From: Escherichia phage 13a | DNA length: 38,841 bases | Strand: one strand, 5' to 3' | Sequence record: NC_011045.1 | Shown: positions 1,213 through 38,106 of the stretch, piece after piece | How the letters are laid out: each line of letters starts with the position of its first letter | Position numbering within the stretch: position 1 is the stretch's first letter | Program-made: the position numbers and the translations under genes | Notes under the pieces: generated by a model | Told to the model about the DNA's origin: nothing | The model's input: only the letters and a program-made list of their open reading frames with translations | Databases searched by the model: none

Positions 1213-1563
1213 ATGGCTATGTCTAACATGACTTACAACAACGTTTTCGACCACGCTTACGAAATGCTGAAAGAAAACATCCGTTATGATGACATCCGCG
1301 ACACTGACGACCTGCACGATGCTATTCATGAGGCTGCTGATAATGCAGTACCGCACTACTACTCTGACATCTTTAGCGTGATGGCAAGTGAAGGCATTTA
1401 TCACGAGTTCGAGGACTCTGGTCTGATGCCGGACACCAAGGATGTGACCCGCATCCTACAGGCTCGCATTTATGAGCAACTCACGATTGACCTTTGGGAA
1501 GACGCTGAGGACTTGCTGAACGAGTACCTTGAAGAAGTTGAGGAAGAGGAAGAGGACTTATAA
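1213..1563 (+). CDS. 0.3: Ocr, DNA-mimic anti-restriction protein (gene 0.3), 116 aa
   Basis: [22 protein letters not shown]... near-identical to T7 Ocr; acidic C-terminus. Confidence 0.95.
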
Positions 1564-1565
1564 TC

Positions 1566-1703
1566 ATGGTCAAGTATGGTCTAACAAAAGAGATGATTCA
1601 GACGTACCGCGTAGCGATGGCTTATGGTGCTCCTTTCGGGTACTGCATGGCGCAACTGGCTCAGACATACCGAGCACGTAAAGCGATGTACGGTAGCAAG
1701 TGA
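1566..1703 (+). CDS. 0.4: Small early protein, gene 0.4-like (45 aa)
   Basis: ATG 3 nt after ocr stop; position and size as T7 gene 0.4; below ORF-track cutoff. Confidence 0.5.
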
Positions 1704-1752
1704 TAGACTCAAGGTCGCTCTTAGAGAGAGTGGCCTTTATGATTATCATTCT
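1704..1752 (+). promoter_or_regulatory. RNase III site-like hairpin (R0.5-like)
   Basis: actcaaggtcgctcttagagagagtggcctttatgattatcatt. Confidence 0.5.
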
Positions 1753-1767
1753 ATGAGGATTAAACGT

Positions 1768-1902
1768 ATGACGACTGGAATCATTATGGCAACCTTTGCA
1801 GTAATCGTAGCGATGGGATGGCGCAACGCTGACCGGATGGCTATTGCTAACGGTCGTGCGCTCAACATAGACAAACAACTTGACGCAATGCTAATGGGCT
1901 GA
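1768..1902 (+). CDS. Small hydrophobic early protein (gene 0.5/0.6-like), 44 aa
   Basis: ATG 1768 with gagga SD 7 nt upstream; predicted TM segment [16 protein letters not shown]; track ORF 1624..1902 is the same frame extended upstream. Confidence 0.45.
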
Positions 1903-1962
1903 TAGTCTTATCTTACAGGTCATCTGCGGGTGGCCTGAATAGATACGATTTACTAACCGGAA
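1903..1962 (+). promoter_or_regulatory. RNase III site R1-like upstream of gene 1
   Basis: caggtcatctgcgggtggcctgaatagatacgatttactaa matches T7 gene 1 leader as recalled. Confidence 0.5.
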
Positions 1963-1972
1963 GAGGCACTAA

Positions 1973-4624
1973 ATGAACACGATTAACATCGCTAAGAACG
2001 ACTTCTCTGACATCGAACTGGCTGCTATCCCGTTCAACACTCTGGCTGACCATTACGGTGAGCGTTTAGCTCGCGAGCAGTTGGCCCTTGAGCACGAGTC
2101 TTACGAGATGGGTGAAGCACGCTTCCGCAAGATGTTTGAGCGTCAACTTAAAGCTGGTGAGGTTGCGGATAACGCTGCCGCCAAGCCTCTCATTACTACC
2201 CTGCTCCCTAAGATGATTGCACGCATCAACGATTGGTTTGAGGAAGTGAAAGCTAAGCGCGGCAAACGCCCGACAGCCTTCCAGTTCCTGCAAGAAATCA
2301 AGCCGGAAGCTGTAGCGTACATCACCATTAAGACCACTCTGGCTTGCCTCACGAGCGTAGACAATACAACCGTTCAGGCTGTAGCAAGTGCAATCGGTCG
2401 AGCTATTGAGGACGAGGCGCGCTTTGGTCGAATCCGTGACCTTGAGGCTAAGCACTTCAAGAAAAACGTTGAGGAACAACTTAACAAGCGCGTAGGGCAC
2501 GTCTACAAGAAAGCATTCATGCAGGTTGTTGAAGCGGACATGCTATCTAAGGGTCTACTGGGCGGTGAGGCGTGGTCTTCGTGGCACAAGGAGGACTCCA
2601 TTCACGTTGGGGTTCGCTGCATTGAAATGCTAATTGAGTCTACCGGAATGGTTAGCTTACACCGCCAAAACGCTGGCGTAGTTGGTCAAGACTCTGAGAC
2701 TATCGAACTAGCACCGGAATACGCTGAGGCTATCGCAACCCGTGCAGGTGCACTGGCTGGTATCTCTCCGATGTTCCAACCTTGCGTAGTTCCTCCTAAG
2801 CCTTGGACCGGTATTACTGGTGGTGGTTATTGGGCTAACGGTCGCCGCCCACTGGCGCTGGTACGTACCCACAGCAAGAAAGCACTGATGCGCTACGAAG
2901 ACGTTTACATGCCAGAGGTTTACAAGGCTATTAACATTGCGCAAAACACCGCATGGAAAATCAATAAGAAAGTCCTAGCGGTCGCCAATGTCATCACCAA
3001 ATGGAAGCACTGCCCTGTAGAGGATATCCCAGCGATTGAACGTGAAGAACTCCCGATGAAACCGGAAGACATCGACACGAATCCTGATGCTCTCACCGCG
3101 TGGAAACGTGCCGCTGCCGCTGTGTACCGTAAAGACAAGGCTCGCAAGTCTCGCCGTATCAGCCTTGAGTTCATGCTTGAGCAAGCCAATAAGTTCGCTA
3201 ACCATAAAGCCATCTGGTTCCCTTACAACATGGACTGGCGCGGTCGTGTTTACGCTGTGTCAATGTTCAACCCGCAAGGTAACGATATGACCAAGGGTCT
3301 GCTGACGCTGGCGAAAGGTAAACCAATCGGTAAGGAAGGTTACTACTGGTTGAAAATCCACGGTGCAAACTGTGCGGGTGTCGATAAGGTTCCATTCCCT
3401 GAGCGCATCAAGTTCATCGAGGACAACCACGAGAACATCATGGCTTGCGCTAAGTCTCCACTGGAGAACACTTGGTGGGCTGAGCAAGATTCTCCATTCT
3501 GCTTCCTCGCGTTCTGCTTTGAGTACGCTGGGGTACAGCACCACGGCCTTAGCTACAACTGCTCTCTTCCGCTGGCGTTCGATGGGTCTTGCTCTGGTAT
3601 TCAGCACTTCTCCGCGATGCTCCTTGATGAGATAGGTGGTCGTGCGGTTAACCTGCTGCCTAGTGAAACCGTTCAGGACATCTACGGGATTGTCGCTAAG
3701 AAAGTCAACGTGATTCTACAAGCAGATGTAATCAACGGGACCGACAACGAAGTAGTTACCGTGACCGATGAGAACACTGGTGAAATCTCTGAGAAAGTCA
3801 AGCTGGGCACTAAGGCGCTGGCTGGTCAATGGTTGGCTTACGGTGTTACTCGCAGCGTGACTAAGCGTTCAGTCATGACGCTGGCTTACGGGTCCAAAGA
3901 GTTTGGCTTCCGTCAACAAGTGCTGGAAGATACCATTCAGCCAGCTATTGATTCCGGTAAAGGTCTGATGTTCACTCAACCGAATCAGGCTGCTGGATAC
4001 ATGGCGAAACTGATTTGGGAAGCTGTGAGCGTGACGGTGGTAGCCGCTGTGGAAGCTATGAACTGGCTCAAGTCTGCTGCTAAGCTGCTGGCTGCTGAGG
4101 TCAAAGATAAGAAGACTGGAGAGATTCTTCGCAAGCGTTGCGCTGTGCATTGGGTGACTCCTGATGGTTTCCCTGTGTGGCAGGAATACAAGAAGCCGAT
4201 TCAGACCCGCTTGAACCTGATGTTCCTCGGTCAGTTCCGTCTACAGCCAACCATTAACACCAACAAGGATAGCGAGATTGACGCGCACAAGCAGGAGTCC
4301 GGCATCGCTCCTAACTTTGTACACAGCCAAGACGGTAGCCACCTGCGTAAAACTGTAGTGTGGGCGCACGAGAAGTACGGAATCGAATCCTTTGCACTGA
4401 TTCACGACTCCTTCGGGACCATTCCTGCCGACGCTGCCAACCTGTTCAAAGCTGTGCGCGAAACTATGGTTGACACCTATGAGTCTTGTGATGTACTGGC
4501 TGACTTCTACGACCAGTTCGCTGACCAGTTGCACGAGTCTCAATTGGATAAAATGCCAGCACTTCCGGCTAAGGGAAACTTGAATCTCCAAGACATCCTT
4601 AAGTCAGACTTCGCGTTCGCGTAA
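1973..4624 (+). CDS. 1: T7-type single-subunit DNA-dependent RNA polymerase (883 aa)
   Basis: 883-aa ORF, MNTINIAKNDFSDIELAAIPFNTLADHYGERLAREQ... near-identical to T7 RNAP. Confidence 0.99.
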   Translation: MNTINIAKNDFSDIELAAIPFNTLADHYGERLAREQLALEHESYEMGEARFRKMFERQLKAGEVADNAAAKPLITTLLPKMIARINDWFEEVKAKRGKRPTAFQFLQEIKPEAVAYITIKTTLACLTSVDNTTVQAVASAIGRAIEDEARFGRIRDLEAKHFKKNVEEQLNKRVGHVYKKAFMQVVEADMLSKGLLGGEAWSSWHKEDSIHVGVRCIEMLIESTGMVSLHRQNAGVVGQDSETIELAPEYAEAIATRAGALAGISPMFQPCVVPPKPWTGITGGGYWANGRRPLALVRTHSKKALMRYEDVYMPEVYKAINIAQNTAWKINKKVLAVANVITKWKHCPVEDIPAIEREELPMKPEDIDTNPDALTAWKRAAAAVYRKDKARKSRRISLEFMLEQANKFANHKAIWFPYNMDWRGRVYAVSMFNPQGNDMTKGLLTLAKGKPIGKEGYYWLKIHGANCAGVDKVPFPERIKFIEDNHENIMACAKSPLENTWWAEQDSPFCFLAFCFEYAGVQHHGLSYNCSLPLAFDGSCSGIQHFSAMLLDEIGGRAVNLLPSETVQDIYGIVAKKVNVILQADVINGTDNEVVTVTDENTGEISEKVKLGTKALAGQWLAYGVTRSVTKRSVMTLAYGSKEFGFRQQVLEDTIQPAIDSGKGLMFTQPNQAAGYMAKLIWEAVSVTVVAAVEAMNWLKSAAKLLAAEVKDKKTGEILRKRCAVHWVTPDGFPVWQEYKKPIQTRLNLMFLGQFRLQPTINTNKDSEIDAHKQESGIAPNFVHSQDGSHLRKTVVWAHEKYGIESFALIHDSFGTIPADAANLFKAVRETMVDTYESCDVLADFYDQFADQLHESQLDKMPALPAKGNLNLQDILKSDFAFA

Positions 4625-4632
4625 CGTCAAAT

Positions 4633-4655
4633 TAATACGACTCACTATAGAGGGA
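4633..4655 (+). promoter_or_regulatory. T7-type promoter phi1.1A
   Basis: taatacgactcactatagaggga. Confidence 0.85.
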
Positions 4656-4700
4656 CAAACTCAAGGTCATTCGCAAGAGTGGCCTTTATGATTGACCTTC
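4656..4700 (+). promoter_or_regulatory. RNase III site R1.1-like
   Basis: actcaaggtcattcgcaagagtggcctttatgattgacc. Confidence 0.5.
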
Positions 4701-4707
4701 TTCCGGT

Positions 4708-4730
4708 TAATACGACTCACTATAGGAGAA
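4708..4730 (+). promoter_or_regulatory. T7-type promoter phi1.1B
   Basis: taatacgactcactataggagaa. Confidence 0.85.
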
Positions 4731-4807
4731 CCTTAAGGTTTAACTTTAAGACCCTTAAGTGTTAATTAGAGATTTAAATTAAAGAATTATAAGAGAGGAC
4801 TTTAAGT
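4731..4807 (+). other. AT-rich region downstream of phi1.1A/B, candidate primary origin of replication
   Basis: AT-rich stretch following paired promoters, same arrangement as the T7 primary origin (established for T7, inferred here). Confidence 0.4.
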
Positions 4808-4936
4808 ATGCGTAACTTCGAAAAGATGACCAAACGTGCTAACCGTAACGCTCATGACTTCGAGGCAACTAAGGGTCGCAAGTTTAATAAACCATTACGA
4901 ACCCGTGCACATAAACGCTGCTGGGAGGGTCAATAA
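4808..4936 (+). CDS. 1.1: gp1.1 small basic protein (42 aa)
   Basis: MRNFEKMTKRANRNAHDFEATKGRK... matches T7 gp1.1. Confidence 0.85.
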   Translation: MRNFEKMTKRANRNAHDFEATKGRKFNKPLRTRAHKRCWEGQ

Positions 4937-4937
4937 G

Positions 4938-5195
4938 ATGGGACGTTTATATAATGGGAACTTGAATGACTTCAAGGCTGCTTGCAACAGGCTATACCAG
5001 TTGGACTTTGCTGTTATAGCTGTTGAGCAGGAAGGTTCACCAAACATAAAGGCAACCATGTACCTTCGGATTGAAGACCGTACTGGTCGCATAGTGGTTC
5101 AGGAAGAGATTCACCACTGCGACGAAGACGTTCTGTACAATATGTGTACTGATTGGCTGAACCGTATGTATGACCAGTTGAAGGACTGGAAGTAA
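4938..5195 (+). CDS. 1.2: gp1.2 inhibitor of host dGTP triphosphohydrolase (85 aa)
   Basis: MGRLYNGNLNDFKAACNRLYQLD...DEDVLYNMCTDWLNRMYDQLKDWK matches T7 gp1.2; track ORF 4836..5195 is the same frame with upstream extension. Confidence 0.9.
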   Translation: MGRLYNGNLNDFKAACNRLYQLDFAVIAVEQEGSPNIKATMYLRIEDRTGRIVVQEEIHHCDEDVLYNMCTDWLNRMYDQLKDWK

Positions 5196-5215
5196 TACGA
5201 CTCAGTATAGGGACA
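5193..5215 (+). promoter_or_regulatory. T7-type promoter phi1.3
   Basis: taatacgactcagtatagggaca. Confidence 0.8.
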
Positions 5216-5258
5216 ATGCTTAAGGTCGCTCATTGAGTGGCCTTAGTCATTTAACCAA
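5216..5258 (+). promoter_or_regulatory. RNase III site R1.3-like
   Basis: aatgcttaaggtcgctcattgagtggccttagtcattt. Confidence 0.5.
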
Positions 5259-5273
5259 TAGGAGATAAACATT

Positions 5274-6296
5274 ATGATGAACATTAAGACTAGCCCGTTT
5301 AAAGCCGTGTCCTTTGTTGAGTCCGCAGTGAAGAAGGCATTAGACAACGCTGGATACCTAATTGTAGATTGTAAATATGACGGTGTGCGTGGTAATATCT
5401 GCGTAGACAATACCGCTAACAGTTGCTGGCTCTCTCGTGTTTCTAAAACGATTCCGGCACTGGAGCACTTAAACGGGTTTGATGTTCGCTGGAAGCGTCT
5501 ACTGAGCGATGACCGTTGCTTCTACAAGGATGGCTTTATGCTCGATGGGGAACTCATGGTCAAAGGCGTAGACTTTAACACAGGGTCCGGCCTACTGCGC
5601 ACCAAATGGACTGACACCAAGAACCAAGAGTTCCACGAAGTGTTATTCGTTGAACCAGTCCGTAAGAAAGATAAAATTCCGTTCCACTTACACGCCGCAA
5701 AACTCCAAGTAAAACTGTACGCTATCCTCCCGCTGCACATCGTGGAGTCTGGAGAAGACTGCGATGTCATGACGTTGCTCATGCAGGAACACGTTAAGAA
5801 CATGCTGCCTCTGCTACAGGAATACTTCCCTGAAATTGAATGGCAAGCGGCTGAGTCTTACGAGGTCTACGATATGGTAGAACTACAGCAACTGTATGAG
5901 AAGAAGCGCGAAGAAGGACACGAGGGTCTCATTGTGAAAGACCCGATGTGTATCTATAAGCGCGGTAAGAAGTCCCGCTGGTGGAAACTCAAGCCTCTTG
6001 AGCAAGCTGACGGCATCATTCAAGGTGTAAACTGGGGAACCGAAGGACTTGCTAACGAAGGTAAAGTGATTGGCTTTAGTGTCTTGCTAGAAAGCGGGTG
6101 TGTAGTCGATGCCAATAACATCTCACGGGAACTGATGGATGAATTTACAGCTAACGTTAAAGAACATGGCGATGACTACTATAACGGCTGGGCTTGTCAG
6201 ATTGGGTACATGGAGCAAACACCTAATGGAAACCTTAGACACCCATCCTTCACCTGCTTCCGTGGCACCGAGGACAACCCTCAAGAGAAAATGTAA
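5274..6296 (+). CDS. 1.3: ATP-dependent DNA ligase (340 aa)
   Basis: MMNIKTSPFKAVSFVESAVKKALDNAGYLIVDCKYDGVRGN... (adenylation motif KYDGVR); T7 ligase homolog, slightly shorter. Confidence 0.97.
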   Translation: MMNIKTSPFKAVSFVESAVKKALDNAGYLIVDCKYDGVRGNICVDNTANSCWLSRVSKTIPALEHLNGFDVRWKRLLSDDRCFYKDGFMLDGELMVKGVDFNTGSGLLRTKWTDTKNQEFHEVLFVEPVRKKDKIPFHLHAAKLQVKLYAILPLHIVESGEDCDVMTLLMQEHVKNMLPLLQEYFPEIEWQAAESYEVYDMVELQQLYEKKREEGHEGLIVKDPMCIYKRGKKSRWWKLKPLEQADGIIQGVNWGTEGLANEGKVIGFSVLLESGCVVDANNISRELMDEFTANVKEHGDDYYNGWACQIGYMEQTPNGNLRHPSFTCFRGTEDNPQEKM

Positions 6297-7361: not shown

Positions 7362-7674
<313 letters not shown>

Positions 7675-9412: not shown

Positions 9413-11601
<2,189 letters not shown>

Positions 11602-12615: not shown

Positions 12616-14574
12616 ATGATCGTTTCTGACATCGAAGCTAACGCCCTCTTAGAGAGCGTCACTAAGTTCCACTGCGGGGTTATCTACGACTACTCCACCG
12701 CTGAGTACGTAAGCTACCGTCCGGGTGACTTCGGTGCGTATCTGGATGCGCTGGAAGCCGAGGTTGCACGAGGCGGTCTTATTGTGTTCCACAACGGTCA
12801 CAAGTATGACGTTCCTGCATTGACAAAACTGGCAAAGCTGCAATTGAACCGAGAGTTCCACCTTCCTCGTGAGAACTGTATCGACACCCTTGTGCTGTCA
12901 CGTTTGATTCATTCCAACCTGAAAGACACCGATATGGGTCTTCTGCGTTCCGGTAAGTTGCCGGGGAAACGCTTTGGGTCTCACGCTTTGGAGGCGTGGG
13001 GTTATCGCTTGGGCGAAATGAAAGGTGAATACAAGGATGACTTTAAGCGTATGCTTGAAGAGCAGGGTGAAGAATATGTTGATGGTATGGAGTGGTGGAA
13101 CTTCAACGAAGAGATGATGGACTATAACGTTCAGGACGTTGTGGTCACTAAAGCTCTCCTTGAGAAGCTACTCTCTGACAAACATTACTTCCCTCCTGAG
13201 ATTGACTTTACGGACGTAGGGTACACTACGTTCTGGTCAGAATCCCTTGAGGCCGTTGACGTTGAACATCGTGCTGCATGGCTGCTCGCTAAGCAAGAGC
13301 GCAATGGGTTCCCGTTTGACACGAAAGCAATCGAAGAGTTGTACGTAGAGTTAGCTGCTCGCCGCTCTGAGTTGCTCCGTAAATTGACCGAAACGTTTGG
13401 CTCATGGTATCAGCCTAAAGGTGGCACCGAAATGTTCTGCCATCCGCGAACAGGTAAGCCACTGCCTAAGTACCCTCGCATTAAGACACCTAAAGTGGGT
13501 GGTATCTTTAAGAAGCCTAAGAACAAGGCACAGCGAGAAGGCCGTGAGCCTTGCGAACTGGACACCCGCGAGTACGTTGCTGGCGCTCCGTATACTCCAG
13601 TGGAGCACGTGGTGTTTAACCCTTCGTCTCGTGACCACATCCAGAAGAAACTCCAAGAGGCTGGATGGGTCCCCACGAAGTACACCGATAAGGGTGCTCC
13701 TGTGGTGGACGATGAGGTACTCGAAGGAGTACGTGTAGATGACCCTGAGAAGCAAGCTGCTATCGACCTCATTAAAGAGTACTTGATGATTCAGAAGCGA
13801 ATCGGACAGTCTGCTGAGGGAGACAAGGCATGGCTTCGTTACGTTGCTGAGGACGGTAAAATTCATGGTTCTGTTAACCCTAATGGAGCAGTTACGGGTC
13901 GTGCGACCCATGCGTTCCCAAACCTTGCGCAAATTCCGGGTGTACGTTCTCCTTATGGAGAGCAGTGTCGCGCTGCTTTTGGCGCTGAGCATCATTTGGA
14001 TGGGATAACTGGTAAGCCTTGGGTTCAGGCAGGTATCGACGCAAGCGGCCTTGAGTTGCGCTGCCTGGCTCACTTCATGGCTCGATTTGATAACGGTGAG
14101 TACGCTCACGAGATTCTTAATGGTGACATCCACACTAAGAACCAGATGGCTGCTGAACTGCCTACCCGCGATAACGCTAAGACGTTCATCTACGGGTTCC
14201 TTTATGGTGCCGGTGATGAGAAGATTGGGCAGATTGTCGGTGCTGGTAAAGAGCGTGGTAAGGAACTCAAGAAGAAATTCCTTGAGAACACCCCTGCGAT
14301 TGCAGCACTCCGTGAGTCTATACAACAGACACTTGTCGAATCCTCTCAGTGGGTAGCTGGTGAGCAACAAGTCAAGTGGAAACGCCGCTGGATTAAAGGT
14401 CTGGATGGTCGTAAGGTCCATGTTCGCAGTCCTCACGCTGCTTTGAATACCCTTCTGCAATCTGCTGGTGCTCTCATCTGCAAACTGTGGATTATCAAGA
14501 CCGAAGAGATGCTCGTAGAGAAAGGCTTGAAGCATGGCTGGGATGGGGACTTTGCGTACATGGCATGGGTGCAT
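12616..14574 (+). CDS. 5: DNA polymerase gene 5, exon 1 (653 codons)
   Basis: [49 protein letters not shown]... near-identical to T7 gp5 through ...DFAYMAWVH; unspliced frame stops 8 codons later at 14596-14598. Confidence 0.95.
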
Positions 14575-15175
14575 AAACTATCTCATTGTGCACATTAAAT
14601 CTGGTGAACTCGGTGAAACCCTTCTGGGGCAATACCGAGCCAAGCCATAGGGAGGATATATGAGAGGCAAGAAGTTAATCCTTGCGACCACAGAGAGTGG
14701 TTGTATCATCCCTACGTCACACAAACTTAATGCTGATGGTTATTTCCGAAAGAAGACGAACGGTGTCCTAGAGATGTATCACAGGACAGTCTGGAAGGAA
14801 CACTACGGAGATATACCAGAAGGGTATGAAGTAGACCACAAGTGTAGGAACAGGGCGTGCTGTAACGTAGAGCACCTCCAGTTACTAGAAGGTTCTGAGC
14901 ATACAGTCAAGACAAACAGGGAACGCTACGCTGACCGTAAAGAGTCCGCGAAGGAATACTGGTTGGAGACTGGATGTACAGGAACACACTTAGGTGAGAA
15001 GTTTGGTGTAACGTTCTCTGCAGCTTGTAAGTGGATTAGAGAGTGGAAGGCGTAGAGACTATCCGAAAGGAGTAGGGCCGAGGGTGAGATTCCCTCGTTA
15101 CCCGAAGCGCCAGACAGTCAACTCAAAGGCTGATGATATAGTCCGACACTCCTAGTAATAGGAGAATACAGAAAG
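14575..15175 (+). mobile_element. Group I self-splicing intron in DNA polymerase gene (601 nt)
   Basis: Exon 1 ends in U, intron ends in G; internal guide GUGCAC (14588-14593) pairs with exon GUGCAU (14569-14574); R/S-like core gacta (15057-15061) / gatatagtcc (15135-15144); P9-like hairpin 15149-15164; joined exons restore full 704-aa DNAP. Confidence 0.85.
14660..15055 (+). CDS. Intron-encoded HNH homing endonuclease (131 aa)
   Basis: SD agggagg before ATG; HNH motif YEVDHKCRNRACCNVEHLQLLEGSEHTVKTN; paralogous to the 7.7 and post-19 HNH ORFs. Confidence 0.85.
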   Translation: MRGKKLILATTESGCIIPTSHKLNADGYFRKKTNGVLEMYHRTVWKEHYGDIPEGYEVDHKCRNRACCNVEHLQLLEGSEHTVKTNRERYADRKESAKEYWLETGCTGTHLGEKFGVTFSAACKWIREWKA

Positions 15176-15331
15176 GATGAGATTCAAGTAGGTTGCCGTA
15201 CCGAAGAGATTGCTCAGGTTGTAATTGAGACCGCACAAGAGGCAATGCGCTGGGTTGGAGACCACTGGAACTTCCGGTGTCTGCTGGATACCGAAGGTAA
15301 GATGGGTCCGAATTGGGCCGTATGTCACTGA
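15176..15331 (+). CDS. 5: DNA polymerase gene 5, exon 2 (51 codons + stop)
   Basis: DEIQVGCRTEEIAQVVIETAQEAMRWVGDHWNFRCLLDTEGKMGPNWAVCH matches T7 gp5 C-terminus. Confidence 0.9.
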   Translation, partial: DEIQVGCRTEEIAQVVIETAQEAMRWVGDHWNFRCLLDTEGKMGPNWAVCH

Positions 15332-15350: not shown

Positions 15351-15650
15351 ATGGCTATGACCAAGAAATTTAAAGTGTCCTTCGACGTTACCGCAAAGAT
15401 GCCGTCTGACGTTCAGGCAATCTTAGAGAAAGACATGCTGCATCTATGTAAGCAGGTTGGCTCCGGTGAGATTGTCCCCAATGGTAAACAGAAGGAAATG
15501 ATTGTCCAGTTCCTGACACACGGTATGGAAGGCTTGATGGCATTCGTAGTACGTACATCATTCCGTGAGGCCATCAAGGACATGCACGAAGAGTATTCCG
15601 ATAAGGACTCCTTCAAACTATCTCCTGCAACTGTACGGGAGGTGTTCTGA
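15351..15650 (+). CDS. 5.5: gp5.5 H-NS-binding protein (99 aa)
   Basis: MAMTKKFKVSFDVTAKMPSDVQAILEKDMLHLCKQVGSGEIVPNGKQKEM... near-identical to T7 gp5.5. Confidence 0.93.
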   Translation: MAMTKKFKVSFDVTAKMPSDVQAILEKDMLHLCKQVGSGEIVPNGKQKEMIVQFLTHGMEGLMAFVVRTSFREAIKDMHEEYSDKDSFKLSPATVREVF

Positions 15651-15859
15651 TGTCTGACTATCTGAAAGTGCTACAAGCAATAAAATGTTGCCCTAAGACT
15701 TTCCAGTCCAACTATGTGCGTAACAATGCGAGCCTCGTAGCGGAGGCCGCTTCCCGTGGTCACATCTCATGCCTGACCACAAGTGGACGTAACGGTGGCG
15801 CTTGGGAAATCACTGCTTCTGGTACTCGCTTTCTTAAACGAATGGGAGGATGTGTCTAA
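15650..15859 (+). CDS. 5.7: gp5.7 (69 aa), host RNAP/sigma-S-associated inhibitor
   Basis: MSDYLKVLQAIKCCPKTFQSNYVRNNASLVAEAASRGHISCLTTSGRNGGAWEITASGTRFLKRMGGCV, T7 gp5.7-like. Confidence 0.9.
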   Translation: MSDYLKVLQAIKCCPKTFQSNYVRNNASLVAEAASRGHISCLTTSGRNGGAWEITASGTRFLKRMGGCV

Positions 15860-18313: not shown

Positions 18314-18705
18314 CAGATTGTATCGAGTGGACTGGCTACCTCACAAAAGATGGGTACGGCGAAACTCGACTGAATGGTGTCAAATTTAGGGTTCATCGTC
18401 TAGAATGGATTAAACAAAGAGGCCCAATACCTGAAGGTCTAGTTGTTCGCCATAAGTGCGATAACCCTAAATGTTACAATATCGAACACCTTGAGCTAGG
18501 AACAACTCAGGATAACACTAGAGATAGGGTCTTGAGGAATAGAAGCGCAAAGGGAGTACGTAATGGAAATTCCAAATTAACACCTGATGTCGTTCTGGCA
18601 ATACGCGCAAGTAGTAAGACCCACAAGCTGATAGCCGAAGAGTTCGGTGTATCCAAATCAGTTGTGACACAGATACGAGCACGTAAGACATGGAGGCATA
18701 TCTAA
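18310..18705 (+). CDS. 7.7: HNH endonuclease gp7.7 (131 aa)
   Basis: HRLEWIKQRGPIPEGLVVRHKCDNPKCYNIEHLELGTTQDN HNH motif; T7 gene 7.7 position. Confidence 0.9.
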   Translation: MTDCIEWTGYLTKDGYGETRLNGVKFRVHRLEWIKQRGPIPEGLVVRHKCDNPKCYNIEHLELGTTQDNTRDRVLRNRSAKGVRNGNSKLTPDVVLAIRASSKTHKLIAEEFGVSKSVVTQIRARKTWRHI

Positions 18706-33087: not shown

Positions 33088-34764
33088 ATGGCTAACGTAA
33101 TTAAAACCGTTTTGACTTACCAGTTAGATGGCTCCAATAGTGATTTTAATATTCCGTTTGAGTATCTAGCCCGTAAGTTCGTAGCGGTAACTCTTATTGG
33201 CGTAGACCGCAAGGTCCTTACGATTAATACAGACTACCGTTTTGCTACTCGCACCACTATCTCTCTTACAAAGGCTTGGGGTCCAGCCGATGGCTACACG
33301 ACCATCGAGTTACGTCGAGTAACATCCACGACCGACAGATTGGTTGACTTTACGGACGGCTCAATCCTCCGTGCGTATGACCTTAACGTAGCTCAGATTC
33401 AAACGATTCACGTAGCGGAAGAGGCCCGTGACCTCACTGCGGATACTATCGGTGTCAATAACGATGGTCACTTGGATGCTCGTGGTCGTCGAATTGTGAA
33501 CCTAGCGAACGCCGTGGATGACCGCGATGCTGTTCCGCTTGGTCAACTAAAGACCATGAACCAGAACTCATGGCAAGCACGTAATGAAGCCTTACAGTTC
33601 CGTAATGAGGCTGAGACTTTCAGAAACCAAGCGGAGGGCTTTAAGAATGAGTCCGGTACTAACGCTACGAACACAAAGCAGTGGCGAGATGAGACCAAGG
33701 GTTTCCGAGACGAAGCCGAGCAGTTCAAGAATACGGCTGGTCAATACGATACATCTGCTGGGAACTCTGCTTCCGCTGCGCATCAATCTGAGGTAAACGC
33801 TGAGAACTCTGCCACAGCATCCGCTAACTCTGCTCATTTGGCAGAACAGCAAGCAGACCGTGCGGAACGTGAGGCAGACAAGCTGGGGAATTTTAATGGA
33901 CTGGCTGGTGCAATTGATAAGGTAGATGGAACCAATGTGTACTGGAAGGGAAATATTCACGCTAACGGGCGCCTTTACATTACCACAAACGGTTTTGACT
34001 GTGGTCAGTATCAACAGTTCTTTGGTGGTGACACTAATCGTTATTCTGTCATGGAGTGGGGAGATGATAACGGATGGCTGATGTATGTTCAACGTAGAGA
34101 GTGGACAACAGCGATAGGCGGTAACATCCAGTTAGTAGTAAACGGACAGATCATCACCCAAGGCGGAGCCATGACTGGTCAGCTAAAATTGCAGAATGGG
34201 CATGTTCTTCAATTAGAGTCCGCATCCGACAAGGCGCACTATATTCTATCTAAAGATGGTAACAGGAATAACTGGTACATTGGTAGAGGGTCAGATAACA
34301 ACAATGACTGTACCTTCCACTCCTATGTACATGGTACGACCTTAACACTCAAGCAGGACTATGCAGTAGTTAACAAACACTTCCACGTAGGTCAGGCCGT
34401 TGTGTCCACTGATGGTAATATTCAAGGTACTAAGTGGGGAGGTAAGTGGCTTGATGTTTACCTAAACGATACTTACGTTAAGAAGACAATGGCTTGGACT
34501 CAAGTATGGGCTGCTGATAGTGGTAAGTACCTGCCAGGAGGTTCTCAGACTGATACTCTCCCACAGGACTTACGATTCCGCAACATATGGATTAGGACCA
34601 GAAACAACTATTGGAACTTCTTCCGAACTGGTCCTGATGGTATCTACTTCCTTTCAGCCGAGGGCGGTTGGCTAAAATTCCAGATACACTCTAATGGCAG
34701 GGTATTTAAGAACATATCGGATAGAGATGCGCCTCCAACAGCAATAGCCGTAGAGGACGTGTAA
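33088..34764 (+). CDS. 17: Tail fiber protein gp17 (558 aa)
   Basis: MANVIKTVLTYQLDGSNSDFNIPFEYLARKFVAVTLIGVDRKVL... conserved N-terminus; C-terminal tip region differs from T7 as recalled. Confidence 0.97.
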   Translation: MANVIKTVLTYQLDGSNSDFNIPFEYLARKFVAVTLIGVDRKVLTINTDYRFATRTTISLTKAWGPADGYTTIELRRVTSTTDRLVDFTDGSILRAYDLNVAQIQTIHVAEEARDLTADTIGVNNDGHLDARGRRIVNLANAVDDRDAVPLGQLKTMNQNSWQARNEALQFRNEAETFRNQAEGFKNESGTNATNTKQWRDETKGFRDEAEQFKNTAGQYDTSAGNSASAAHQSEVNAENSATASANSAHLAEQQADRAEREADKLGNFNGLAGAIDKVDGTNVYWKGNIHANGRLYITTNGFDCGQYQQFFGGDTNRYSVMEWGDDNGWLMYVQRREWTTAIGGNIQLVVNGQIITQGGAMTGQLKLQNGHVLQLESASDKAHYILSKDGNRNNWYIGRGSDNNNDCTFHSYVHGTTLTLKQDYAVVNKHFHVGQAVVSTDGNIQGTKWGGKWLDVYLNDTYVKKTMAWTQVWAADSGKYLPGGSQTDTLPQDLRFRNIWIRTRNNYWNFFRTGPDGIYFLSAEGGWLKFQIHSNGRVFKNISDRDAPPTAIAVEDV

Positions 34765-37644: not shown

Positions 37645-38106
37645 ATGATAAGTAAGAAGAAGTATACAGTTGATAAGGATACTGGCTGCTGGAACTTTAA
37701 GGGATGTAAGACGAAGACTGGTTATGGTCGTCTCCGTGTAAATGGAGTCCATTGGATGGCCCACAGGTATTCCCTGAGTTGTCACCTAGGCAGACCGATA
37801 GCTGATGGAATGGTTGTGATGCACCTATGTGATAATCCGTCATGTGTTAACCCTGAGCATCTTAAAGAAGGGACTCAGAAGGAGAATATGGATGACTGTA
37901 AGGCCAAAGGTAGGATGTACAGGCCGGGTGCCACAGGAAAACAAAAGACCAGTACGGCGAAGGTTGCCTATCACGATGACTGGCGTAAAGACCAAGTTAT
38001 TCGCTATCATGTACGTTGGAAATGGAAGCCATCTCGAATTGCTGAGAAGATGAGGCTATCTATAACGTGGGTTAAGAGGGTCTTAGAGGAGTACGTAAGT
38101 CTTTGA
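37645..38106 (+). CDS. Free-standing HNH homing endonuclease (153 aa), inserted between gene 19 and phiOR
   Basis: ATG with taaggaggt SD; HNH motif HWMAHRYSLSCHLGRPIADGMVVMHLCDNPSCVNPEHLKEGTQKEN; rare-codon rich; no counterpart at this position in T7 as recalled. Confidence 0.85.
   Translation: MISKKKYTVDKDTGCWNFKGCKTKTGYGRLRVNGVHWMAHRYSLSCHLGRPIADGMVVMHLCDNPSCVNPEHLKEGTQKENMDDCKAKGRMYRPGATGKQKTSTAKVAYHDDWRKDQVIRYHVRWKWKPSRIAEKMRLSITWVKRVLEEYVSL

Follow-up and report, generated by a model that had tools for sequence, protein, structure and literature searches.

The short early region of Escherichia phage 13a very probably arose by deletion from an early region of the usual T7 type. The 44-aa open reading frame (ORF) that precedes gene 1 is a remnant of the kinase gene 0.7, the label gp0.7 already stands in the public 13a record, and the feature as a whole is an ordinary, already known and annotated case of a well-known deletion class. 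We analysed the complete genome of this T7-group phage (NC_011045.1; 38,841 nt, hereafter the window), whose first 24 kb align over 90% of their length to T7 at approximately 93% nucleotide identity. An earlier sequence-only reading of the same DNA had described the order ocr, a 0.4-like gene, one small ORF, an R1-like hairpin and gene 1, and the ORF coordinates together with the predicted hairpin bear this out. It had also placed the start of gene 1 at 1973, against approximately 3171 in T7, which agrees with the ORF list and with the T7 record (gene 1 at 3171–5822, compared with 1973–4624 in 13a). The features of the region are the following:

1213–1563: ocr, upstream of gene 1
1566–1703: 0.4-like ORF of 45 aa, named gp0.4 in the 13a record
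1699–1748, plus strand: R0.5-like RNase III hairpin region, 5' of the fused ORF, 92% identical to T7 1429–1476
1755–1759, plus strand: Shine-Dalgarno sequence GAGGA, read from the sequence, 8 nt before the ATG at 1768 and identical in JB01
1768–1902, plus strand: 44-codon chimeric ORF named gp0.7, an exact match to ACF15887.1 of the 13a record
1807–1823, plus strand: deletion junction, the single remaining copy of a 17-nt imperfect direct repeat, GTAGCGATGGGATGGCG, located by comparison with the contig L015
1819–1902, plus strand: kept 3' end of gene 0.7, equivalent to T7 3017–3100 and opening the 93.4% alignment to T7
1880–1915, plus strand: E. coli promoter C, with putative hexamers TTGACG (−35, 1880–1885) and TAGTCT (1903–1908), a 17-nt spacer and the start at 1915
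1904–1950, plus strand: predicted RNase III processing hairpin R1 (minimum free energy −22.1 kcal/mol, z = −3.0)
1973–4624, plus strand: gene 1, a T7-type RNA polymerase of 883 aa, 98.8% identical to T7 gp1 and an exact match to ACF15888.1

The ORF at 1768–1902 is an in-frame fusion of codons 1–19 of a 0.5-like gene with codons 333–359 of gp0.7, and its last 84 nt are the last 84 nt of gene 0.7. It had previously been taken for an unrelated small hydrophobic gene, a description that has to be given up; that the ORF holds the 3' end of gene 0.7 had been overlooked. The N-terminal 19 aa are identical to those of the 56-aa 0.5-like proteins of JB01 and of L015, a Logan contig, and the C-terminal 27 aa match the gp0.7 tail of LNA7 at 27/27 positions and that of T7 at 24/27. 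Two synonymous changes are the only difference between the tail of the chimera and that of LNA7. The extreme C-terminal tail of gp0.7 is present in 13a, then, and it ends directly before promoter C and R1. The frame of the fused ORF is open further back, to an ATG at 1624, and the resulting 92-aa frame (1624–1902) runs across the R0.5 hairpin and the last part of the 0.4-like gene; the start at 1768 is preferred on the strength of the deposited annotation and the Shine-Dalgarno sequence.

Comparison with relatives that carry a full-length gene 0.7 places the junction to the nucleotide. JB01 has the same upstream layout as 13a, after which come a 0.5-like gene of 56 codons and a complete kinase gene of 359 codons, and L015 was found via the exact 13a-type gp0.4. 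In L015, GTAGCGATGGGATGGCG lies in the 0.5-like gene (4240–4256) and GTAGCGATGAAATGGCG in gene 0.7 (5563–5579); the two are identical at 15/17 positions and stand 1323 bp apart. Positions 1807–1823 of 13a align to both copies, with exactly 1323 bp (441 codons) missing between them, and this missing segment comprises the rest of the 0.5-like gene, the inter-gene spacer and gp0.7 codons 1–332. Along 13a, the alignment to L015 jumps from 4256 to 5563 with the two parts overlapping by 17 nt, and that to JB01 (L002) jumps from 4076 to 5387 with the repeat shared over 13 nt (13a 1819–1831). An alignment to the T7 early region, proposed earlier as a check, exposes the deletion in the same way: blocks at 13a 1–925, 1145–1556 (ocr) and 1699–1748 (the R0.5 region, which has the same placement relative to the next start codon in both phages) precede a jump from T7 1476 to 3017, after which 13a 1819–5000 corresponds to T7 3017–6199 at 93.4% identity. 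On both sides of the deletion the flanks are collinear with the full-length relatives.

An ancestrally compact early region, in a lineage that never had the kinase, would explain the compactness itself and nothing more, and its probability is practically nil. The last 84 nt of the ORF, being the 3' end of gene 0.7, lie in the same continuous 93.4% T7 alignment as gene 1, a longer gene in relatives opens with the same 56 nt as the ORF, and the junction falls on a repeat that is found at both sites in full-length relatives. The alignments to T7, JB01 and L015, together with the matches of the chimeric protein, refute such an origin.

A full-length gene 0.7 is, as judged from the sequenced relatives, the norm. 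A tblastn search with the kinase domain returned 879 phage records, 793 of them covering at least 80% of the domain length. Among the eight other listed contigs with an identical 13a-type gp0.4, six have a kinase-sized gene downstream (359 aa in L014–L016, and ending at the contig end in L018 and L019), and the remaining two stop before the kinase position. The search via exact gp0.4 found no full-length sibling of 13a above 97% identity, the best relatives being approximately 93–96% identical. Such relatives are too dissimilar for dating the event, and the exact sequence of the ancestral repeat, like the when and where of the deletion, is deduced from them.

A deletion derivative of this kind would descend from an ancestor in which ocr, the 0.4-like gene and R0.5 preceded a 0.5-like gene of 56 codons and a gene 0.7 of 359 codons, with promoter C, R1 and gene 1 after them. 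The 1323 bp would have been lost when two imperfect 17-nt repeat copies, probably located at codons 14–19 of the 0.5-like gene and codons 328–334 of gene 0.7, recombined or replication slipped between them. The event would have taken the whole kinase domain (residues 1–242) together with the basic helix through which the shutoff domain binds DNA, and left one repeat copy at 1807–1823 within the in-frame 44-codon chimera. The peptide encoded by this chimera most likely has no function and is a by-product. The genes lost in 13a are all non-essential class I genes. In established T7 genetics genes 0.5–0.7 are non-essential and a 0.7 deletion is a textbook event, and spontaneous T7 deletions between short direct repeats here reportedly go back to the early-region mapping of Studier and colleagues, from the 1970s onward. 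Genes 0.5–0.7 are also described as non-essential in more recent work (PMC13645617, PMC8923235).

The kinase itself is absent. T7 gp0.7 consists of a kinase domain (PK, residues 1–242) and a shutoff domain (SO, 243–359), and the basic helix of the latter binds DNA (PMC13645617). In a tblastn search of the whole window, T7 gp0.7 matches only with residues 329–359, at 1807–1899, and the PHROG 2828 profile of the T7 kinase family (also PF27024) aligns to the 44-aa ORF only at profile positions 334–366 of 366 (E = 4.2e-5). Both searches leave the window without the kinase domain and its DPV motif (T7 residues 213–215). Of the shutoff domain, with its positively charged DNA-binding helix, residues 333–359 alone survive; the Arg/Lys-rich stretch (approximately residues 250–300 in T7) is deleted, and the net charge of the 44-aa product calculated from its sequence is approximately +1. 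Compared with T7 gp0.7 (T7K), 13a is homologous in the last 27 residues and in the downstream regulatory DNA, and lacks the kinase domain as well as the basic helix that binds DNA. We relied on PHROGs and tblastn for the kinase search, given that our local Pfam copy misses even T7 gp0.7 and is uninformative on kinases.

Elsewhere in the genome, all ORFs of appreciable size correspond to T7 genes or encode HNH endonucleases, and the stretches that no T7 homologue covers contain nothing beyond small early ORFs and three genes for HNH endonucleases. In a tblastn of every T7 protein against the whole window, gp0.5 and gp0.6A found no match. Hence, 13a makes no T7 kinase, and the 44-aa product cannot be a kinase. 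The sequence-only reading had reported a compact region without genes 0.7 and 0.6 and no kinase-like ORF anywhere in the window. A renewed look for a kinase homologue, by tblastn and with PHROG 2828, recovered nothing beyond the gp0.7 tail, and the absence of 0.6 likewise stands; the claim for gene 0.7 holds for the kinase but not for the gene as a whole, the 3' end of which is kept in the 44-aa ORF.

For host shutoff, gp2 and gp5.7 had been named among the functions left to the phage, and both genes are indeed present, at 7483–7674 (98.4% identity to T7 by tblastn) and 15650–15856 (98.6%), respectively; gp5.5 was also found by tblastn in the window. Host transcription shutoff in 13a probably rests on gp2 and gp5.7. 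The phage would be expected to lack modulation of the host RNA polymerase, phosphorylation of RNase E and RNase III, and relief of ColIb exclusion. The T7 kinase (T7K) has been described as a broad counter-defence factor (PMC13645617), and 13a would presumably lack the kinase-based counter-defence against Retron-Eco9, DarTG1 and other systems. As a ready-made kinase-less but otherwise wild-type T7 relative, 13a is a possible comparator in host-range or defence-system screens, and the loss of the kinase is relevant when parts of 13a, for example the tail fibre, enter engineered phages. The practical value is modest, and there is little to discover.

The signals for gene 1 expression all lie to the right of the deletion and are untouched. 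Positions 1903–1972 of 13a are identical to T7 3101–3170 at 68/70 positions without any indel. Promoter C, given at 3113 in the T7 record, corresponds to 13a 1915 at a constant offset of 1198, and one base of its spacer differs between the two phages. A generic sigma-70 scan recovered promoters A1–A3 and missed the weak promoter C, which is placed by the T7 alignment; the TTGACG/TAGTCT assignment is our own reading of the hexamers. In the predicted R1 hairpin one base differs from T7, and the records of Yersinia phages R and Y mark R1 at the corresponding position. Promoter C, the predicted R1 hairpin and the gene 1 ribosome-binding site are thus conserved both in sequence and in their spacing to the gene 1 ATG.

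Comparable deletions are known from natural phages and from laboratory lines. The Yersinia pestis phage phiA1122 is, like 13a, a natural T7-group phage without the kinase. At a short repeat, CTTGAGGAA, its ocr reading frame continues into the gp0.7 tail, with the ocr side reading ...NEYLEE; the end of the fusion contains ADRMAIANG.(L/A) and is followed by the unchanged region of promoter C, R1 and gene 1. In contrast to 13a, the left end of the phiA1122 deletion lies in ocr, so that ocr gains a new C-terminus and genes 0.4–0.6 are also lost; the deletion is larger (T7 1249–2992), and approximately 35 tail residues are retained compared with 27 in 13a. Yersinia phages R, Y and YpP-Y have the same compact layout as phiA1122. 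YpP-R carries an in-frame internal deletion that leaves an 86-aa truncated "protein kinase" from which the catalytic and DNA-binding parts are gone and in which the same tail is kept; unlike in 13a, both ends lie inside gene 0.7 (at approximately codons 54 and 324), and genes 0.4–0.6 are kept.

Laboratory T7 mutants resemble 13a in that spontaneous 0.3–0.7 deletions at repeats of 7–13 nt are in frame and leave the gene 1 signals intact, but they arose in T7 under documented passage and have other endpoints. In T7_20L (MZ375235) ocr is joined to gp0.7 at a 13-nt repeat, in isolate K (AY264775) 0.6A is joined to gp0.7 at approximately codon 184, and in K115 (AY264776) codon 3 of 0.5 is joined to the last 0.7 codon, giving MYMD. 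In T7_20L and K most or all of the shutoff domain is still present; 13a has only its last 27 residues. A further T7 deletion, of 1.4 kb, begins at the end of 0.3 and extends as far as the C-terminal part of 0.7 (PMC8923235). The earlier remark that laboratory T7 frequently carries deletions here is well founded in view of T7_20L, K, K115 and this last deletion. The recombinant T7-B (L013, PV223880), an engineered or evolved T7, combines the T7_20L ocr::0.7 deletion with a 1-nt loss at the junction (1218–1232), a frameshift that splits the coding sequence of the retained shutoff domain from the ocr frame, possibly in response to toxicity of the fused domain.

These parallels bear on when the deletion arose. 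It may be an artefact of propagation, as the sequence-only reading had suggested, having arisen during decades in the laboratory, in which case 13a as sequenced would be unlike the phage first isolated, and we regard this as a serious possibility that falls somewhat short of probable. Deletions with this architecture that remove the kinase have become fixed again and again in laboratory T7, and the 13a junction is found in no other phage record and in no viral, metagenome or genome contig of the collections searched; its 44-aa protein (ACF15887.1) is likewise confined to one record and is the sole member of its cluster among approximately 15 billion proteins. A recent event also fits the absence of extra decay in the two halves of the scar, which are identical to L015 at 56/56 and 76/79 nt. 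However, equivalent deletions are fixed in the independently isolated Yersinia pestis phages phiA1122, R, Y, YpP-Y and YpP-R, and therefore loss outside the laboratory is equally plausible.

The same set of deletions raises the question of whether the 44-aa chimera, or more generally the last 27–35 residues of gp0.7, is a functional module retained by selection. The tail is in frame in three natural and three laboratory lineages, the chimeric ORF has a Shine-Dalgarno sequence, an intact frame and an RNase III site upstream, and its divergence from the LNA7 tail is synonymous throughout. We nevertheless consider such a module very unlikely. In T7 and JB01, exact direct repeats that pair an upstream gene with the 3' part of 0.7 were counted, and most of them are in the same codon phase (64–69% of 6-mers, 85% of 8-mers and 100% of 10-mers); because most of the available repeats share codon phase, in-frame outcomes are expected without selection. 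The tail DNA must stay in any case, because the −35 element of promoter C lies inside it and R1 and the gene 1 start adjoin it. Moreover, laboratory line K115 is viable with a single tail codon (MYMD), and the basic DNA-binding helix is missing from the 44-aa peptide. An argument for selection on the in-frame tail from 6/6 deletions being in frame, against a naive expectation of 1 in 3, was dropped, given that the codon phase of the repeats explains it. The more specific idea that the last approximately 27 residues of gp0.7 are an autonomous functional peptide, expressed by fusion to whatever gene lies upstream, seems to us highly improbable. If it were true, the fusion partner in 13a would be a hydrophobic, membrane-anchor-like leader, and gene 0.7 function would in part have survived the removal of the kinase. 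A by-product of the deletion remains the preferred reading of the peptide.

Several other features of the 13a genome differ from T7. An extra 65-aa ORF at 945–1142, which the sequence-only reading had also overlooked, stands before ocr and after promoter A3, a position without an ORF in T7; its match is PHROG 6500, a family of unknown function (E = 4.5e-37), and an exact look-up of its product found no entry in the protein collection. It is bracketed by two R0.3-like RNase III hairpin copies (876–916 and 1145–1194), and JB01 has a different 94-aa ORF in the same slot, which looks like an exchangeable early-gene cassette. The 0.4-like gene at 1566–1703 (PF26807, PHROG 5058) is 35% identical to T7 gp0.4, and an identical protein occurs on at least 10 other contigs (Logan and ENA assemblies). 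The early region is mosaic, with LNA7 pairing a 13a-type 0.4 with T7-type 0.5 and 0.6 genes.

Gene 5 (DNA polymerase) has two exons, 12616–14574 and 15176–15328, and is split after codon 653 by approximately 600 nt. Positions 14565–15165 give a full-length match to the group I intron model RF00028 at 37.9 bits (E = 4.6e-8; gathering score 50), and the insert contains an HNH endonuclease ORF (14660–15055, PF13392). It is 98–99% identical in JeanTinguely, Bas103, Bas104, HZP2 and others. Further HNH endonuclease ORFs (both PF13392) are found at 9413–9895, in the gene 3.8 position and with 31% identity to T7 gp3.8, and at 37645–38106, after gene 19, where T7 is without such a gene. T7 gene 5.3 is absent from 13a and, like genes 1.4 and 4.1, gave no match in the window in the tblastn of T7 proteins. 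The typical identity between 13a and T7 proteins is approximately 95–99%, and gp1.2 (4938–5192, 60%), gp7.7 (18316–18702, 51%) and the gp17 tail fibre (33088–34758, 90%) are far more divergent.
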